Shown here piece by piece: positions 3,692 through 23,336 of a stretch of 64,000 nucleotides of DNA. Below the pieces are notes generated by a model that worked only from the letters and a program-made list of their open reading frames with translations, had not been told where the DNA came from and made no database searches. Source of the DNA: Gemmatimonadales bacterium (GTDB taxonomy: Bacteria; Gemmatimonadota; Gemmatimonadetes; Palauibacterales; Palauibacteraceae); NCBI GenBank assembly GCA_037385645.1, contig JARRMU010000007.1:8040-72039 (forward strand). Direction: 5' to 3'. A program made the position numbers and the translations under genes. Positions within the stretch are counted from its first letter, which is position 1. Each line of letters begins with the position of its first letter.

Positions 3692-6600
3692 TCAAGCCCC
3701 GGCCGGTGCCTCGGAGGGTGCTGGACCCATCGGCTGGGGTGAAACCCGGGCCGCCTCGGCCGCCTCGTCTCCGCCGTAGGGGATCCGGAAGAAGATCGTG
3801 TAGAGCACCGGCACCACGATCAACGTAAGAACGGTGGCTACGAGCAGCCCGGCCATGATCGTGACCGCCATCGAAATGAAGAAGGCGTCGGTGAGTAGCG
3901 GGATCATCCCAAGGATCGTGGTGGCGGCGGCCATCATGACGGGGCGCATTCTCGCCACGCCCGAATCCACCACGGCGTGGAAGCGGTTCTTCCCGGTCTC
4001 GATCTGCCGGCCGATTTCCTCCACGAGGACGATCGCGTTCTTGATCAGCATCCCGATCAGGCTCAGGAATCCGAGCAGGGCCATGAAGCCGAACGGTTGC
4101 CGGAAGAGCAGCAGTCCGGCCGTCACGCCGATGATCGCCAGCGGTGCCGTCAGCCAGATGACGAGCGTCTTCTTGATCGAGTTGAACAGCAGGATCACGA
4201 TCAGGATCATGAGGCCGAAGAAGATCGGGAGCGAGGCGGCGAGCCCGGCCTGCGCCCGCGAGCCATCCTCGGCCTCTCCCCCCCAGGCGATGAAGTAGCC
4301 GGGCATGCCCTTGATCGGAATCTGATCCATCTCGACGATCGGGATCGTGCTCGCGGTCAAGGTCTCGAGCGGATCCCGGTCCCCGAAGTCCTTCCCGGTG
4401 TAGGCGGCCAGGTCCACGTTGAGCGCTCGCTCGATGCGGGGCTTGACCCGGTCGAGCAGCTCGCTCGCCAGCTCTCCGTCCGGGTCCGCGTGGACGCGGA
4501 TCGTTCGGTTTCGGTTCCAGCGGAAGCGGGTCGCGTCCTCCCAGATGGTCTCGAAGCCGGCGAGGATCTGGCGCATCGGGATGTTCCGGCCGGCCGCCGC
4601 GCTCCAGATCTGGAGGTCGCGGATGTTGTCCACGTCGTCCCGCTCGTAGTCCGGCGCCCGTGCCACGATCGGCAGGAGCTCGTCGCGCTCGCGGTACACG
4701 CCCGTCTGCGCTCCCTGGAAGGCGACGCGCAGCTGCTTGGCCAGCTCGGGCCGCTCGATCCCGAGCTGACGCGCCTGAGCCTCTGCCAGGACTGGTTGAA
4801 CCGCCTTAACCCTCTCCCTCCACTCGTCCCGGACCCCCTTGCCGCCTTCCTCGCGGAGGATGTCCTTCACCGTCGCCGCCATCTCGCGCAGGATCGTCCC
4901 GTCCGGGCCGCTGATACGGAGCTGGATCTGGCCACCCTCCCCCGGTCCGAGACGGAACTTCCGGATGTTGACGATCGCTTCGGGCAGCAACTCCTGGAGC
5001 TCTCGCTGGCTCCTCGCCTGCAGATCGTCGATGATCGTCCAATCGTTCACGTCCACGAACATGGCGCCGAACGAGGAGCTGGCCGGGTTGGGCGTATAGG
5101 TGAGGAGGAAGCGCAAATCCCCGCCCCCGATCGCGGTCGAGACGTGCGTGACTCCCTCCAGGCCCATGAAGTATTCCTCCGCCTTCGCCAGCTCCCGCTC
5201 CGTATCGCGGATGTGGGTGCCCTCCGGCAGCCAGATGTCCGCGAAGAACTGCGGCCGCGTGGAGTTCGGGAAGAACATGTTGCTGACGAAGCCAAATCCC
5301 CACAGGGAGACGAGGAAGATCCCGATGATGGCGCCCATGGTGAGCCACCGTCGTCGAATCGCGCCCGACAGCAGGGCCTTGTATGCCCCGTAAAACTTTC
5401 CGCCGTACGCGTCCTTCGCCTCCTCTCCTGCGCTCTCCTTCTTTCCTTTGAGAAACATCTTTCCGACGAGCGGCGTGGTGGTGATGGCCGTCACCCAGCT
5501 GAGCATGAGGGAGATCAGGATGACCGTGTAGAGCGAGCGGCAGTACTCGCCGGTGCTGTCCTGAGACGTGCCGATCGCCGCAAAGGCGAGGATCGCGATC
5601 ACGGTGGCGCCGAGGAGGGGGATCATGTTCTGGCCGACGACTTCGGAGGCGGCTTTGATGCGGTCCATCCCCTGCTCGATCCGCACCTGCATCCCGTCGA
5701 CGACGACGATCGCGTTGTCGACCAACATCCCCAGGGCGATGATCAGCGCGCCGAGGGAGATCCGCTCCAGGATCACTCCCTGCAGCTGCATGAAGACGAA
5801 GGTGCCGAAGATCGTGAGGAAGAGAATCCCACCGATGATCGCGCCGCTGCGGATCCCCATGAAGATCATCAGGACGACGAACACGATCGCCACGGCCTCG
5901 AGCAGGTTAACCATGAAGCCGCCGATCGCCGCGGTCACGGCCTCCGATTGCAGCGACACCGCCCCGATCTCCATTCCGAGCGGCGTCTGGGCCTGAAGCT
6001 GCTCGAGCTTCCGCTGCAGAGCATCGCCCATCGTTACCACGTTGCCGCCCGCGACGGTGGAGATGCCGATCGCGATGCCCGGTTTCCCATCGTAGCGGAT
6101 GATCTGGGTGGGCGGATCCCGATATCCGCGCCGGATGGCCGCCACGTCCTTCAGGTAGACGAGCCCGCCCTCTCCTCCGCGGGTGGTGATGAGGAGCTCG
6201 CCGAACTCCTTCTCGGACTGGAACTCGCCGGTCGGGACGATCGCGATGTAGTTGAGGCCGAGCTCTACGCGGCCCGCGTCCGCCGGCAGGTTCTTCGCCT
6301 GCAGCGACCGAAAGATGTCGTCCTGCGAGATTCCAAGAGCGGCCATCTTGGCCCGCGACATCTCCACGTAGATGGTCTCTGGATTGTGTCCCCAGAGGAT
6401 GACCCGCTTCACGTCCTGAACGAGCAGGAGCTCCCGGCGGAGGAGCTTCGCGTACTCGTACAGCTCGGCCATCGTGTAGCCCTCGCCCGTCAAGACCGCG
6501 TAGATGCCGTAGACGTCGCCGAAGTCGTCGTTGACGATCGATGGCCCCGCGCCAGGCGGCAGTCGTCCCTGGTAGTCGTTCACTTTGCGCCGCAGCTCGT

Positions 6601-17405: not shown

Positions 17406-18866
17406 TCAGACTGCTGCGGGCTCCGCCGCCTCGGTCGTCTCCAGCGGGCCGATGGCCGGATAGTCGGCGATCAGGTCGTCGACGTAACGCACGTCGAATC
17501 CCTGCCGTTTCAGGTACGAGGCGGCCGCGGCCGCACGGGATCCGGTCCGGCAGTAGACGAGCAGCGTTCCGTTCTCGGGGATACGGGGCTCGTACTCGGG
17601 GAGCCTCGTGTAAGAGGTGTTGAGGGCCCCCGGGACCCGACCCTCCTCGAACTCGGAGGAGAACCTGACGTCCAGTGGCAGCGCCCCGTCCTCCTTTCGG
17701 GCCGACTCGAGGTCCGCGAAGTCGATCACGTCGATCGAATCGTAGGCTCCGCCGTCGATGAAGTAGGCTTCCAGCGCTTCCGGCTCGACGAAGCCGGCCA
17801 CGTTGTCGTACCCGATCCGGACCAGGCTCCGGACCGCCTCGTCCAGATCCTCCTCGCGAACCACCAAGAAGAGCGGCGTCGTCTCATCTTCGACCAGCGA
17901 GCCGACCACTTGGCTGAACGCCCGGTCCAGCGGCGCGTAGAGGGAGCCCTCGAGGTGGCGGGCCATGTACGCGTCCCTGTCCAGCCGGGTGTCGACCACG
18001 AGCAGGTCCTCTCGTCCCGAGAGCTTCTCGAGCTCCGAGCGGGCGAGCTTGCGCGGCGAGGGCAGGTTGCCGAGGACGGGCGCGCCGAGCTTGTTGTCCC
18101 GCTTCATGCGTGCGAAATAGGTCGGCGGCTCGGGCTGGCCGGTGAGGATGAAGTCCACGAAGGCGTCCTCGCCGCGCATCGCGGCCTCGATCGCCGGGCT
18201 GAAGCGCCGCTCGTAGCCTACGGTCGTCTCCGGAACCGCCCCCAGGGCCTTCCCGCAGGCCGAGCCGGCGCCATGGGCAGGCCAGACCTGGAGGTAGTCG
18301 GGCAGCTTCAGAAAATCCTGAACGGAGGAGTAGAGACGCCGGGCCGATGGCTCCATCATGCCCTCGACTTTGGCGGCCGTCTCCAGCAGATCCGGTCGAC
18401 CCAAGTCTCCCACGAAGACGAAATCGCCGCTGGCCAGCCCGATCGGCTCGTCAGCACCCCCTCCCTCGTCGGTGATCAGGAAGACCATGTGCTCGGGCGT
18501 GTGACCGGGCGTGTGAACCGCCTGCACGCTGATGTTGCCGACGCGAAAGGTGTCTCCGTCCTTCAGGAGCTCGTAGTCGTAGTCACCGTCCTTGACCCAC
18601 TCGTACTTCCAGTTCGCGTCGCCCTCATCGGAGAGGTAGAGCTTCGTGCCGAAGCGCTCGGCGAACTCTCGCGCACCCGAGAGGAAGTCGGCGTGAATAT
18701 GTGTCTCGGTGACCGTGGTGATCGTGAGCCCTTCGGACTCGGCCAGCTCGACATACCGGTCGATGTCGCGCTCGGGGTCGATGACCAGAGCCTCGCCCGT
18801 GGCTTGGCAGCCGACCAGGTACGCGTACTGGGCGAGCTTGTCGTCGAAGATCTGTCGCAAGAGCAT
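17406..18866 (-). CDS. Persulfide dioxygenase (MBL-fold, ETHE1/CstB/Blh-like) fused to two rhodanese domains
   Basis: 486 aa. MBL metal-binding motifs (THIHADFLSG, HTPGHTPEHMVFL). C-terminal rhodanese domains with catalytic CRTGSRA (Cys-Arg-x-Gly-x-Arg). Confidence 0.85.
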   Translation of the reverse strand: MLLRQIFDDKLAQYAYLVGCQATGEALVIDPERDIDRYVELAESEGLTITTVTETHIHADFLSGAREFAERFGTKLYLSDEGDANWKYEWVKDGDYDYELLKDGDTFRVGNISVQAVHTPGHTPEHMVFLITDEGGGADEPIGLASGDFVFVGDLGRPDLLETAAKVEGMMEPSARRLYSSVQDFLKLPDYLQVWPAHGAGSACGKALGAVPETTVGYERRFSPAIEAAMRGEDAFVDFILTGQPEPPTYFARMKRDNKLGAPVLGNLPSPRKLARSELEKLSGREDLLVVDTRLDRDAYMARHLEGSLYAPLDRAFSQVVGSLVEDETTPLFLVVREEDLDEAVRSLVRIGYDNVAGFVEPEALEAYFIDGGAYDSIDVIDFADLESARKEDGALPLDVRFSSEFEEGRVPGALNTSYTRLPEYEPRIPENGTLLVYCRTGSRAAAAASYLKRQGFDVRYVDDLIADYPAIGPLETTEAAEPAAV

Positions 18867-18890
18867 CGTGCCTTCTCCTCCGAATCGTGC

Positions 18891-19325
18891 CTAGTGGTGT
18901 GGCAGCCGGGGCGCCAAGTAGCCGTAGGCCCAGGCGCCGGCCAGGGCAGTGAACAGCGCGACGAACATCACTGAGATGCCGTTCCCGATCAGCGCGTATA
19001 TCGGTCCCGGGCAGGCGCCCAGAAGGCCCCAGCCGAGCCCGAACAGCGATCCGCCGACCCAGTAGCGGTAGTTGAGGCCGGCCGAGGGTTTGACTTTGGT
19101 CACGATCTCCGAGCCGCCCAAGCTCCGCATCCCAAGGCGCTTGATCAGCCCTGTCGCCACGGCCGCCACCGCGACCGCGGAGCCGATGATCCCGAACATG
19201 TGGAAGCTCTGAAACCGGAACATCTCCTGGATGCGGAACCAGGAGATCACCTCTCCTTTTGTAAACGCGATTCCCAGGAAAACTCCGAGGAAGACGTAGC
19301 GCAGGAGGCCTCTTCGCTCGTCCAT
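18891..19325 (-). CDS. YeeE/YedE family (DUF395) sulfur-compound transporter half-protein
   Basis: 144 aa, 4 TM. GSLFGLGWGLLGACPGPIY matches the YeeE/YedE conserved Gly/Cys motif. Confidence 0.75.
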   Translation of the reverse strand: MDERRGLLRYVFLGVFLGIAFTKGEVISWFRIQEMFRFQSFHMFGIIGSAVAVAAVATGLIKRLGMRSLGGSEIVTKVKPSAGLNYRYWVGGSLFGLGWGLLGACPGPIYALIGNGISVMFVALFTALAGAWAYGYLAPRLPHH

Positions 19326-19329
19326 CGGG

Positions 19330-19867
19330 TTACCAGGCGCCGAAAATGAGCGGGAGCAGGAGATGGGTCGCCACGAGCCCGCCGGCGAAGAAGCCCAGCA
19401 CGGCGATCAGCGACGAGATCTGGAATGTCGAGAGGCCGCTGATCGCGTGACCGGAGGTGCATCCGTCCGCGTTACGAGCGCCGAAACCCACGATGAAGCC
19501 GCCGATCACGACCATCGCTGAAGAACTCGCTGGGCACCATGCCGTTGAAGTCGCGGATGCCGAGTGCCTCGAGGTCCGCGCGGGTGGACTCGGAGATGGC
19601 GATGACCGGATCGGGGCTGGCCAGCGTCGTGGCCGCGATCGCCGCTCCGCCGATGATCCCGAGGATGAGCATCAGCCGCCACATCCCCCGCTTCCAGTCG
19701 TAGCGGAAGTACTCGATCCGGCCGGGGGCGGTCGCGGCGCATATCTGGCGGAAGCTCGTCGAGAGCCCGAACTGCTTGCCCCCGGCCAGGAGAAGAAGTG
19801 GCACGATGAGGCCGATCAGCGGTCCGGCCACCCACCAGGGCCACGGCTGCGACAGCGTTTCAACCAT
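19330..19867 (-). CDS. YeeE/YedE family transporter half-protein, apparent frameshift near 19516
   Basis: ORF 19472..19867 reads plausibly up to ...NGMVPSEFFS. ORF 19330..19515 (MVVIGGFIVGFGARNADGCTSGHAISG, the canonical YeeE motif) continues in another frame. Joined, the two give a ~178-aa protein. Confidence 0.55.
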
Positions 19868-20009
19868 GTGCTAGGCCCTCCTTGCGGCTATCGCCCCGCG
19901 CTTCGGGCGCTCGTCGAGGAGCCTCTACGATGCTTGGGAGACGCGCCAAACACCGGAGGTTTCCGAGTCATCCGACCGTCGCCAGCCAGGCTGCCATTAT
20001 CCCCGGGCG

Positions 20010-20819
20010 TCACATCCCGGCGAATCTCTCCTTGAGCACGCGACGGACGGCATCCGGAAGGTCTCCGTCCGAGATACGTTGGCACGCCTCGTGGGCCATG
20101 TCCAGTGACAGGAAGAGGGAACGGCAGCGCTCGCACACGGACTCGCGGGGGACGGGGAAGGGCACGCCCTTGTCGAGCGCGTCCTGCTTGGCCTTGAGGA
20201 GATCGAGGCACTCCCGGCGCGCATGGTCGGGCGGTGCGCCCGCCCGGGTCGGCAGCTCGGCGCTCAAGGCCCGCCTGAGCTTCATGCGCGCCCGGTATAG
20301 GCGCGTCTTGATCGTTCCCTCCGTCAGGCCCATGATCTCCGCGATCTCCGCCACGGAGAGATCGGCCATCTCTTTGAGAACCAGCGGGATGCGGAAGGCA
20401 TGCGGAAGCTCGCCGATCGCCCGCTGGACACTCTCCCGTACCCGCTGCCGGTCGAGCGCCTCCACCGGGTGCTCGTCATCGACCGCGGTCAGGACCCCGT
20501 CCTCCCGGGTGGGAAGAAGCTCGGAGAGCGATTCCAGCTGCCGGGGCTCGCCGGCCCGCTTCCGCTTCATCCGCTGACAGGTGCGCGCCGCGATCGTGTA
20601 CAGCCAGGTGGAAGGCTTGGACCGGCCTTCGAAGTTCTCCCAGCCTTTGTAGGCCCGAATGAACGTCTCCTGCACCAGGTCCTCGGCGCCCTGCGGGTCC
20701 CCGCATATCTGCAAGCCCAGCCGGTAGATCTGGTCGCCGTGCTCGTCCAACAGGCGGGGGACTGCCACCTCCGCCGTCTCGGTCGTCATCGGGTCCGTTC
20801 CCGCTCCAGCGGTCCTCAT
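20010..20819 (-). CDS. ECF-type RNA polymerase sigma factor with Cys-rich C-terminal extension
   Basis: 269 aa. Sigma-70 region 2 (DLVQETFIRAYKGWENF) and region 4 (LSVAEIAEIMGLTEGTIKTRLYRARMKL). An extra ~80-aa tail holds 4 Cys and 2 His (HARRECLDL...SVCERCRSL...MAHEAC), suggestive of a fused redox or metal-sensing (ZAS/CRD-like) module. Confidence 0.8.
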   Translation of the reverse strand: MRTAGAGTDPMTTETAEVAVPRLLDEHGDQIYRLGLQICGDPQGAEDLVQETFIRAYKGWENFEGRSKPSTWLYTIAARTCQRMKRKRAGEPRQLESLSELLPTREDGVLTAVDDEHPVEALDRQRVRESVQRAIGELPHAFRIPLVLKEMADLSVAEIAEIMGLTEGTIKTRLYRARMKLRRALSAELPTRAGAPPDHARRECLDLLKAKQDALDKGVPFPVPRESVCERCRSLFLSLDMAHEACQRISDGDLPDAVRRVLKERFAGM

Positions 20820-20881
20820 CTCATCTGCACTCCAGCGGTCCTCATGGCATCTGCACTCCAGCGGTCTTCATGGCATCTGCA
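20804..20881. repeat. Three tandem copies of a 26-bp unit (ctccagcggtcctcatggcatctgca, 1-3 mismatches) spanning the sigma-factor start codon
   Basis: Direct inspection: copies at 20804-20829, 20830-20855 and 20856-20881. On the mRNA strand each copy reads GGAG-UGCAG-AUG... Confidence 0.85.
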
Positions 20882-20970
20882 TTCCGCCCGCCTGCCGGCA
20901 AAACCAGACTGGCGCCGCTCGCGGAATCGTGTTAAGAGAATAGGCGACTTCGGCTTCCGGAGGCTCCGAG

Positions 20971-21609
20971 ATCGACAAGAACCTGCGCTATCGTCTGCCG
21001 TTAATCTGCGTTGCCCTGGGCCTGGCGATCAACGCCGGCGACCTTCTCGGTCAGCAGGAGAATCGGAAGGGCTTCGGGTTCAGCGGATCACTCGGCTGGT
21101 CGACGATCGGCGGCGACTACGGCGAGTTGATGAGCAGCGGCATACCGGCCGAGGGTGCCATCTGGTACCAGCCGAGCTGGTGGCGCATCGGCGTATCCAT
21201 CCACGCGGCCTCCTACGATGTCATCGAGCCCTACACCGACCAAAGCATCAGCCAGGTCGTGTTCCAGCTGCTCGGTACGTTCCTCTTCCTCCGCGGCGAC
21301 CTCGTCCAGCCGTACGCGCAGGTGAGAGTCGGGACCACGCGTTGGCGGCCGGAGGGTCCGCTGTTCGATCCCAACCCGCCGCCCCCCGACGTGCCTCCGG
21401 GAGAAAACCCCGCACCGGGCCGGAACGGCTTCCAGGGAGGGCTCGGCGTCGGCGCGGAGTTCTGGGTCACGAAGAACTTCGGCATCGACGTGGGCGGCCT
21501 GTTCTCGGCGTTCTCCACCCAGGAGCTGGATGTGCCGATCCTCGGAATCACGGGCCTCGAGTCAGGCAGGGAAATCGGCTTTCACGCCGGCGTGGTGTGG
21601 TTCCCGTGA
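20971..21609 (+). CDS. Outer membrane beta-barrel protein (OmpA-like/porin-family barrel); start codon uncertain
   Basis: Frame is open from 20944. A signal-like segment (LRYRLPLICVALGLAINAGDLLGQQ) precedes the first ATG at 21127, so a non-ATG start is likely. Alternating hydrophobic beta-strand pattern, and a C-terminal aromatic residue (VVWFP) typical of OM barrels. Confidence 0.5.
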   Translation: MDKNLRYRLPLICVALGLAINAGDLLGQQENRKGFGFSGSLGWSTIGGDYGELMSSGIPAEGAIWYQPSWWRIGVSIHAASYDVIEPYTDQSISQVVFQLLGTFLFLRGDLVQPYAQVRVGTTRWRPEGPLFDPNPPPPDVPPGENPAPGRNGFQGGLGVGAEFWVTKNFGIDVGGLFSAFSTQELDVPILGITGLESGREIGFHAGVVWFP

Positions 21610-23336
21610 GGCCTCCGCGGCTGTCACGTCCCGCGCGTCTGGCGGCGGCGATGCTCGTCGCCGCGGCCCCGTCGTCGCTCCTTGCCCAGGAGGCGGGGCC
21701 CCGGGCGCCGGAGGTCACGCCGGCCTCGGTGGCGAGCTCGTCCCTGCCGGGCGATACCAGCCGTGCCACCGACTTCTTCCCGCCCGGCGCGCTCAGCCTC
21801 TCAGGCAGGACGGGGTCGGTCGATGTGGGCGCCACGAATCGCGCTCGGTTGATGACCGCCTCGGGCGGAACGGCCCGCCTGTTCCAGGAGCTGTTGGAGG
21901 AGAGCAGCGAAGATCCGCGGGCCGCAGCAGGTTCGTCCGCCGGGGGGTCTTCGGTCGCAGCCGCCAGCAACGCCAAGGATGACGGCGCCCGTTACGATGT
22001 CTGGGGCGCCAAGCGCAACCCGGGCCTGGCGATCGGAGAGGTCGCCGGGATCAACGCGGTCGTCTGGTTCTTCAACGAGTACATCAGGGAAGGGGGGTTC
22101 ACGGCGACCAACCCGAGCACCTGGTGGTTCAACATCTCGCACGGCTTCTTCTACGACGACAACCACTTCAAGACCAACATGTTCGCGCATCCCTACCACG
22201 GGAGCCTCTACTTCAACGCGGCGCGCTCGAACGGTTTGAACTACTTCGAGTCCGTCCCGTTCGCCATTCTCGGCAGCTTCTTCTGGGAGTGCTGCGGCGA
22301 AACGCATCTGATGGCCTGGAACGACTGGGTGATGACCAGCCTCGGCGGTGCCACGATCGGCGAGATTCTGTACCGGGCCGGCTCCACCTTCCTGGACAAC
22401 GAGAAGGCGGGTGGCAGCCGGACCATGAAGGAGATCGGCAACTTTTTCCTCAACCCGATGCGCGGTTTCAACCGGCTCACGTCGGGCCGCGCCAGCCGGA
22501 TCTACCCGAACCCGGCCAGCCCCTACGACCGGCTGACTCCTTTCCTGCGCAACTTCATGAAGCTGGGTGTGCGGTTCACGGGCGACCGCACATCGAACGA
22601 GACGTTCGAGACGGACACGACGGAGACGCACGGCTTCTTCGAGTTCGAGATGACGCACGGCAACGTCTTTCGGGCCGCGCGCCGGAAGCCGTTCGACTAC
22701 TTCACCTTGAACCTGCAGCTCAATTTCAAGGACACGGAGACCCTCGGGCGCCTCCAGATCTCCGGGAACCTCTACACGAGCGACGTCGCACAGAGCAAGC
22801 GGACCCATCACGTCTTCGGGATCACTCAGAACTACGACTACGTCAACAACTCCGTGGTGGAGTTCGGCGGCATGAGCTACGGTGCGGCGCTCTTCTCCAG
22901 GTTCGGGATATCCGAGAAGTGGGACTTCTTTACGGAGGTGAACGCCCACGTCTACCTGCTGAATGCGGTGAACTCCGAGTTCGCGTTCATCGGCGGTCGC
23001 CCGCCGAATGTGGAGCGCTTCCGGGAGTACGACTTCGGCATGGGCCCCGGCGCCTGGGTCAAGTTCGGGTTCACCAACAAGGGGCGAAGAGTCGCGGGCT
23101 TCGTCTACCGCTTTACCTACAACGAGGTGTTGAACGGCTCCGACGCGAACGGTGGGGACACCCACCACACGATCCAGTGGGGCGGCTTCCAGGGGGTCTT
23201 CCCGATCGGCCGCTGGGGCGTCGGCGCGGACGTGCTCGCGTACGTGCGGCGGAGCTACTACGAGGCCATCGGCTTACAGAACATCAAGCAGAACGTCGGC
23301 CAGGTTCGCTTCTACGGGGTCTTCCAGAGCTTCTGA
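21606..23336 (+). CDS. Large exported hypothetical protein (possibly DUF3943-like), signal peptide
   Basis: GTG at 21606 overlaps the upstream stop (GTGA). Signal peptide (AAAMLVAAAPSSLLAQEA). Aromatic-rich sequence (WWFNISHGFFYDDNHFKTNMFAHPYHGSLYF), C-terminal Phe. The 978-aa ORF in the track is a composite with the upstream antisense frame. Confidence 0.55.
   Translation: MRPPRLSRPARLAAAMLVAAAPSSLLAQEAGPRAPEVTPASVASSSLPGDTSRATDFFPPGALSLSGRTGSVDVGATNRARLMTASGGTARLFQELLEESSEDPRAAAGSSAGGSSVAAASNAKDDGARYDVWGAKRNPGLAIGEVAGINAVVWFFNEYIREGGFTATNPSTWWFNISHGFFYDDNHFKTNMFAHPYHGSLYFNAARSNGLNYFESVPFAILGSFFWECCGETHLMAWNDWVMTSLGGATIGEILYRAGSTFLDNEKAGGSRTMKEIGNFFLNPMRGFNRLTSGRASRIYPNPASPYDRLTPFLRNFMKLGVRFTGDRTSNETFETDTTETHGFFEFEMTHGNVFRAARRKPFDYFTLNLQLNFKDTETLGRLQISGNLYTSDVAQSKRTHHVFGITQNYDYVNNSVVEFGGMSYGAALFSRFGISEKWDFFTEVNAHVYLLNAVNSEFAFIGGRPPNVERFREYDFGMGPGAWVKFGFTNKGRRVAGFVYRFTYNEVLNGSDANGGDTHHTIQWGGFQGVFPIGRWGVGADVLAYVRRSYYEAIGLQNIKQNVGQVRFYGVFQSF

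Follow-up and report, generated by a model that had tools for sequence, protein, structure and literature searches.

Tandem copies of its own translation start precede an ECF sigma factor gene in a Gemmatimonadales bacterium: a lineage-specific duplication with a putative role in translation

Why would a sigma-factor gene be preceded by repeated copies of its own translation start, and do these copies serve a purpose? The question arises from a 64,000-nucleotide stretch of a Gemmatimonadales contig (JARRMU010000007.1), here called the window, in which the start of the sigma-factor gene, on the minus strand, holds three tandem copies of a 26-bp unit at 20803-20880 and a 5-bp partial copy. Tandem Repeats Finder delimits the array at 20804-20885 (period 26, 3.2 copies, 92% matches, 0 indels). 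A motif search with the middle copy as the query, allowing up to 3 mismatches, returned three sites in the window (minus strand) against none in 100 shuffles; relative to this query (copy 2), copy 1 has one mismatch and copy 3 has three. By both measures (Tandem Repeats Finder, and three matches against 0 expected) the array is a head-to-tail tandem repeat, which confirms the triplicated 26-bp repeat reported by the first-pass annotation, although the copies had been placed one base out of phase. No further copy of the unit occurs in the 64-kb window at up to 3 mismatches, and a degenerate pattern of the unit, searched against a metagenome collection that evidently lacks this organism, gave two single matches, both unrelated. 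The parts of the array are as follows.

20855-20880, minus strand: repeat copy 1, GCAGATGCCATGAAGACCGCTGGAGT, 5'-most on the mRNA (motif search and Tandem Repeats Finder).
20829-20854, minus strand: repeat copy 2, GCAGATGCCATGAGGACCGCTGGAGT, the query of the motif search (also Tandem Repeats Finder).
20803-20828, minus strand: repeat copy 3, GCAGATGAGATGAGGACCGCTGGAGC (motif search and Tandem Repeats Finder).
20881-20885, minus strand: partial copy GGAAT (GGAGT in the related lineage L066), the source of an extra AUG at 20882.

On the mRNA strand the order across 20900-20780 is ...GGCGGAAT GCAGATGCCATGAAGACCGCTGGAGT GCAGATGCCATGAGGACCGCTGGAGT GCAGATGAGATGAGGACCGCTGGAGC GGGAACGGACCCG ATGACGACCGAGACGG..., and the partial copy at 20881-20885 represents a microhomology mark at the boundary of the duplication. 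Read as mRNA, the array contains a series of nested short ORFs and SD-like motifs.

20842-20871, minus strand: uORF1, MKTAGVQMP*, AUG at 20871 and stop at 20842-20844, its UGA overlapping the AUG of uORF2.
20842-20850, minus strand: minimal ORF AUG-CCA-UGA inside uORF1, in the same frame.
20816-20845, minus strand: uORF2, MRTAGVQMR*, AUG at 20845 and stop at 20816-20818, its UGA overlapping AUG 20819.
20816-20824, minus strand: minimal ORF AUG-AGA-UGA inside uORF2.
20868-20882, minus strand: 4-codon ORF MQMP*, AUG 20882 in the partial copy, its stop overlapping the AUG of uORF1 as AUGA.
20868-20876, minus strand: minimal ORF AUG-CCA-UGA nested in MQMP*.
20856-20859, 20830-20833 and 20804-20807, minus strand: GGAG, weak SD-like cores (-5.9 kcal/mol).

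The AUG of each unit opens a 9-codon frame closing on a UGA that overlaps the AUG of the next unit, and the AUGA stop-start overlaps lie at 20868-20871, 20842-20845 and 20816-20819. The array in the window therefore has the stop-on-start arrangement (ATGA/TGATG) that characterizes uORF-mediated translational coupling, and the leader as a whole holds seven AUGs in ~95 nt. Both mini-ORFs described earlier are indeed found on the minus strand, as are the minimal ORFs (AUGs 20876, 20850 and 20824), but the statement that the mini-ORFs begin with the five residues MRTAG is too generous for uORF1, which matches at four of the five. The chain of nested ORFs in itself needs no selection, because each unit contains ATGA and the period of 26 equals 2 modulo 3; AUG 20819 is in frame with the sigma factor because the final spacer measures 30 nt and not 26. 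The GGAG motifs are situated 5 nt upstream of each minimal-ORF AUG and 10 nt upstream of each 9-codon or long-ORF AUG. They are 4-nt cores with -5.9 kcal/mol to the anti-SD, at about the 10th-25th percentile of all ATGs in the window, and for all AUGs of the leader the anti-SD complementarity ranges from -5.8 to -6.3 kcal/mol. The motifs are thus present as first described, but to call them SDs is too strong in view of the -11.9 kcal/mol of the neighbouring Sulf_transp gene.

The gene that follows offers two candidate starts.

20010-20819, minus strand: ECF sigma factor, longest ORF, 269 aa (MRTAGAGTDPMTTETAEV...), AUG 20819 within copy 3.
20787-20789, minus strand: ATG aligned with the conserved start (MTTETAEV...) in the alignment of relatives.

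The ORF matches Pfam Sigma70_r2 (1.4e-20) and Sigma70_r4_2 (1.2e-14) and scores 94 bits with TIGR02937 sigma70-ECF (cutoff 42.9); with sigma-70 regions 2 and 4 only, the protein belongs to the ECF (group 4) type. It also has a C-terminal extension of ~80 aa (20010-20260, minus strand) with conserved cysteines in the pattern C...CxxC...C. In every relative the gene is accompanied by YeeE/YedE-type sulfur transporters and a persulfide-dioxygenase-like Lactamase_B-Rhodanese fusion (17406-19867, minus strand, in the window), and, where the contig reaches far enough, by a SulP/STAS transporter; no anti-sigma gene is adjacent to it. We consider the protein a candidate sulfur- or persulfide-responsive ECF sigma factor with a built-in sensor domain.

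In the relatives a Met is conserved (M-[T/S/A]-ETA...), which aligns to ATG 20789, 30 nt downstream of 20819, and not to 20819 itself, so that, judged from the alignment, 20789 is the likely ancestral start. The 10-codon extension between the two, MRTAGAGTDP, is without counterpart in other relatives and differs from that of L066 by 2 nonsynonymous and 0 synonymous changes, while the codon differences in the sigma CDS of the same pair are mostly synonymous (26, against 7 nonsynonymous). The length of the N-terminus was considered as a criterion and dropped, since in the family the conserved (A)IP motif is preceded by 2-64 residues, a range that fits both 20819 and 20789. It had been stated that the third copy starts the full-length protein; AUG 20819 does open the 269-codon ORF, but the conserved start aligns to 20789, and the annotation of 269 aa probably reflects the choice of the longest ORF and not of the conserved start. 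In the window, ATG 20789 is abutted by no uORF stop.

Where the repeated unit comes from is revealed by comparison with ~15 distinct orthologous loci of 78-96% protein identity. All share the same neighbourhood, with a divergent outer-membrane-like gene and DUF3943 on one side and two Sulf_transp genes, Lactamase_B-Rhodanese and SulP on the other. In one of them (L011, ENA contig, 4351-5816) the calls give three short ORFs in place of one Lactamase_B-Rhodanese gene and omit the second Sulf_transp, which probably reflects assembly frameshift errors and not biology. The loci were aligned from an intergenic core (TATTCTCTTAACACGAT...CGCCAGT) to the coding sequence for IPRLLDEHGD.

20908-20945, minus strand: conserved core TATTCTCTTAACACGAT-N-CGCCAGT, aligned in all orthologous loci, including those at 78% protein identity.

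Conservation is high in the core and in the coding sequence, whereas the stretch between them, which begins immediately downstream of the core, varies in length and in sequence: the two most distant loci have 59 nt, most loci 94-116 nt and the window 176 nt. In this alignment the array is shown to occupy the variable region between the core and start codon 20789. By this comparison, its unit was duplicated from the translation start of the sigma gene itself (GCAGATGnnATGAnGACCG); GCAGATGCCATGAGGACCG of the window and GCAGATGTGATGATGACCG of L028 match at 16 of 19 positions, a similarity that 3 of 1000 shuffles attained. The three closest lineages are about equally distant from the window (CDS nucleotide identity 95.3-96.0%). 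One of these, L066 (95.8%), likewise holds three copies; 8 substitutions fall inside the array, and the AUGA chain is intact, although the minimal-ORF AUG of copy 3 is lost. In another, L067 (95.3%), there is a single upstream unit, reading GGAGG, 8 nt, AUG ACG ACC GAU GGA UGG CAG AUG CGA UGA. This encodes MTTDGWQMR*, the AUG of which lies exactly 26 nt upstream of the conserved main AUG, with the UGA overlapping the latter. As L067 holds a one-unit version, the array of the window can be read as an expansion of an L067-type start duplication (MTT...), and the slipped-strand origin proposed earlier is borne out by this version and by the match to the start region of L028. The aligned loci show the array to be specific to the lineage: a 26-nt duplicate of the start segment (...GCAGATGnnATGAnGACCG...) was expanded in tandem from a single upstream unit to three. 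The duplication is real but young.

At this position other relatives have duplications of their own, independent of that in the window: L028 has 24 bp x 2.2 copies (96% matches), L016/L030 24 bp x 2 (84% matches), L025/L027 9 bp x 2, and L068 a perfect in-frame duplication of 24 bp (MTTETADA-MTTETADA). Since several such events arose independently, the sigma start region seems to be a recurrent target of short tandem duplication in this clade. The in-frame 24-bp duplications of L028 (~2460-2515) and L068 (77-125) would add 8 N-terminal residues. In L030/L016 (~2455-2525) the upstream copy of the duplicated first 8 codons supplies an SD for the real GTG start, because the coding sequence ACG GCG GAG GCG contains GGAGG.

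Any short repeat carries a general risk of being expanded or collapsed during assembly, and it is this risk, and nothing else, that speaks for an assembly artefact, a possibility raised when the array was first noticed. The exact 269-aa protein is on record in 23 contigs, and in all 10 of those examined (NCBI MAGs, JGI metagenomes and Logan assemblies, from different samples) the three-copy array is identical. In the 99%-identical strain P0001 (L021) the intergenic spacing is as in the window, so that no copy-number variation occurs among the 11 assemblies. The array is also present, with substitutions, in the diverged lineage and, at 78 bp, it is shorter than a typical read. Because it is the same across pipelines and below typical read length, we regard the array as real and stable in this uncultured Gemmatimonadales population, and the probability of an artefact as negligible. 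The same observations bear on the earlier suggestion of a variable-number repeat, i.e., a contingency locus at which frequent slippage would change the copy number and thereby switch or tune sigma expression within populations. This suggestion draws on the head-to-tail repeat in the translation initiation region and on the unequal sister lineages, with one and three upstream units. However, the 11 assemblies, from varied samples and sources, are invariant, L066 likewise has exactly three copies, only L067, ~5% distant, has one upstream unit, and the 1-3 substitutions by which the copies differ imply age and stability and not rapid turnover. As copy-number polymorphism was not found, we do not consider the array a contingency VNTR, an explanation that is extremely improbable.

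If the array is a stable element, it might act through the structure of its RNA or as DNA. The RNA fold of the array with its flanks gave z = +0.56, with 139 of 200 shuffles folding as well; Rfam returned no match at E <= 1 in 19800-21800, and neither sigma-70 promoters nor intrinsic terminators were found in 19800-21300. Structured-RNA and attenuator ideas were rejected on the basis of this fold. The leader peptide that had been suggested, if understood as attenuation, fails on the same non-significant z and on the missing terminator: with no hairpins and no terminator, the array is not an attenuator. We also rejected an ECF-type promoter in or near the array, as GGGAAC occurs just past copy 3 without a CGTC-type -10 partner. 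Throughout the window, matches to GGAAC/GAAAC-N14-18-CGTC are at chance level, and the only convincing one is located upstream of the Sulf_transp operon, not of the sigma gene. There (19868-19964, minus strand) an ECF-type promoter-like GG(G/A)AACCT-N~15-GTGTCTCC is conserved in 11 lineages and is followed by a conserved leader of ~60 nt, AAGGAGG and ATG 19867; the consensus fold of this leader shows no compensatory changes, and conservation is the sole evidence for it.

The conserved core at 20908-20945 has no match to the sigma-70 consensus; judging by its conservation, it probably holds promoter or operator elements for one or both of the divergent genes. On its other side, the outer-membrane-like gene (20959-21609, plus strand) is called from an internal ATG at 21130 (159 aa). 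Upstream of this call, there is a conserved GGAGG (20959-20963) and, 7 nt further on, a conserved ATC (20971-20973) that is in frame with a signal-peptide-like N-terminus (IDKNLRYRLPLICVALGLAINAGD...). Ten of 13 lineages have no Met codon between this SD and the signal-peptide-like segment, which suggests that translation begins at a non-canonical codon (AUC, possibly CUG) and that the N-terminus is mis-annotated. In this stretch GTG and TTG are excluded by reading L011 and the window only, and CTG is present as the third codon in L024 and as the fifth in the window.

The position between two divergent genes also invites the idea that the repeats form an array of binding sites, either operators of the direct-repeat type, recognized by a DNA-binding regulator, or multiple GGA motifs through which a CsrA-like RNA-binding protein would occlude the starts. 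Indeed, six GGA motifs (GAGGA or GAAGA, and UGGAG) overlap AUGs within ~80 nt. Yet the unit is missing from most orthologues with the same gene neighbourhood, the rest of the 64-kb window has no second site, a spacing of 26 bp would put successive sites on opposite faces of the helix, and neither a regulator nor a CsrA homologue was identified here. We consider such an array very improbable.

The short ORFs themselves provide a more promising lead, as several relatives carry one directly before the sigma gene. Besides the uORF of L067, uORFs of 4-5 codons with their UGA on the main AUG are found in L024 (MILR*), L026 (MTRER*), and L029 and L011 (both MNRAR*), and an AUGA overlap at the main start is common to all five. 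In L024 and L067 it is the uORF that has a strong, well-spaced SD (GGAGG, at 9 and 8 nt, respectively), and not the main AUG; in L026, L029 and L011 the SD-like motifs are weaker or farther away (in L011, GGAGAGG at ~9-12 nt upstream). L030/L016, in turn, lack the uORF; there the GGAGG lies 6 nt upstream of the main GTG itself. This complementary pattern is consistent with translation of the sigma factor by termination-reinitiation. Applied to the window, it leads to the following scenario. The array would be transcribed within the 5' leader of the sigma gene, as the core at 20908-20945 upstream and the variable leader downstream would imply. Ribosomes initiating on the short ORFs would be handed from AUGA to AUGA by termination-reinitiation and would finally start at 20819, yielding a sigma factor with a poorly constrained N-terminal extension of 10 residues, possibly alongside direct initiation at 20789. 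That the relay ends at AUG 20819 we infer by analogy, because in the relatives the uORF stop overlaps the main AUG. Taken as a whole, such a relay would keep the efficiency of sigma translation at a fixed level and would not work as a switch. By this analogy, the array, if it has any role, probably serves as a termination-reinitiation relay that feeds sigma translation; such a relay is plausible, and the array would represent at most a fixed setting of translation efficiency.

The serious rival is that the array is a neutral relic: replication slippage was fixed by drift, the uORFs are barely translated, the sigma factor is made from AUG 20789, and the repeats are mere filler of the 5'-UTR. 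Between the window and L066 the leader differs at 13 of 146 nt (8.9%), without indels, and the third codon positions of the CDS at 8.5%; since these values are equal, there is no detectable purifying selection on the leader, which evolves at the rate of synonymous sites. None of the 8 substitutions in the array falls on an AUGA or GGAG position, but with P ~0.15 this is not significant. A relic would also accord with the weak GGAG motifs, with an array devoid of RNA structure and Rfam match, with an ORF chain that follows automatically from ATGA and a period of 26, with the loss of one minimal ORF in L066 and with the exclusively nonsynonymous changes in the N-terminal extension. The relay is weakened by much the same facts, i.e., the weak anti-SD complementarity, the lack of RNA structure, Rfam match, promoter or terminator in the regions searched, and a leader diverging at the third-position rate. 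On the other hand, copy number and a leader length of 146 nt were kept without indels across two lineages 4% apart, the strong SD in relatives precedes the uORF and not the main AUG (in L067 and L024; in L011 it is more distant), which suggests that coupling is used, and seven AUGs in a leader of ~95 nt would be expected to capture ribosomes. Weighing these points, we consider a neutral relic somewhat unlikely, whereas the whole reading of a tandemly expanded start segment that acts as a termination-reinitiation relay for the sigma factor is moderately probable.

At least four to five independent duplications of the start region occurred among the ~15 closely related lineages. It is conceivable, albeit quite unlikely, that this region is an evolvable "relay cassette" in which selected, repeated duplications build one to several AUGA-coupled uORFs that set the dosage of the sigma factor; if so, copy number would tune translation over evolutionary time by endogenous means, in the manner of MIRUs. 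In that case the relay could even tie sigma synthesis to the supply of initiator or Met-tRNA, since the gene always has sulfur-transport and persulfide-dioxygenase genes as neighbours and Met codons are unusually frequent in the duplicated segments. To our knowledge, it has not been described that evolution repeatedly took this path, the duplication of a start region into coupled mini-ORFs, at a regulator gene. A lesson that is surer than the relay is that duplications of start regions can misdirect gene callers with respect to N-termini in high-GC genomes. Overall, the array is a well-documented lineage-specific duplication with a putative regulatory role.

How does the array compare with known systems? 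N-terminal isoforms of an ECF sigma factor from alternative starts exist in Streptomyces, where sigR gives rise to sigmaR and the longer sigmaR'. Similarly, initiation at one or the other of the two in-frame candidate starts, 20819 and 20789, would produce sigma factors that differ by a short N-terminal extension; this extension, however, comprises just 10 residues and is not conserved, and there is no sign of two promoters or of differential stability. The principle of a relay is already known from ATGA coupling, from MIRUs and from synthetic bicistronic designs. Experiments in bacteria have demonstrated strict translational coupling of the downstream gene where two ORFs overlap at ATGA (Huber et al., 2019, PMC6728339), and uORFs that "deliver" ribosomes, as well as MIRU repeats coupled at -4 nt, have been reviewed (PMC12548453). 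The array resembles such cases in that every junction is an AUGA stop-start overlap between co-directional ORFs, and in that its relatives L067 and L024 have a good SD before the uORF (more distant in L011) and none at the main AUG. It differs in having three to four successive junctions, derived from tandem duplication before one gene, and in its weak SD-like motifs. MIRUs, as described by Supply et al. (1997) according to the same review, are repeat units at gene starts, which can be tandem and whose internal ORF is coupled downstream at -4 nt. The units of the array are likewise located at a gene start, with internal ORFs that meet the next start at -4 nt. MIRUs, however, are dispersed over many mycobacterial loci and apparently mobile, whereas the 26-bp unit is found at one locus in the window, in the Gemmatimonadota; as it is home-grown from the sigma gene's own start and, within the window, occurs at this locus only, the array is not a MIRU. 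In synthetic bicistronic designs, as cited in the review (PMC12548453), a leader cistron is coupled to the gene of interest, i.e., the stop of a short first ORF lies at or on the start codon of the expressed gene, to which ribosomes are passed on, much as proposed here, although the array is natural, comprises several units and has no engineered strong SD inside a leader cistron. If the relay works, the array would be a natural case in which gene dosage is set by duplicating the start region of the gene itself into a chain of coupled mini-ORFs.
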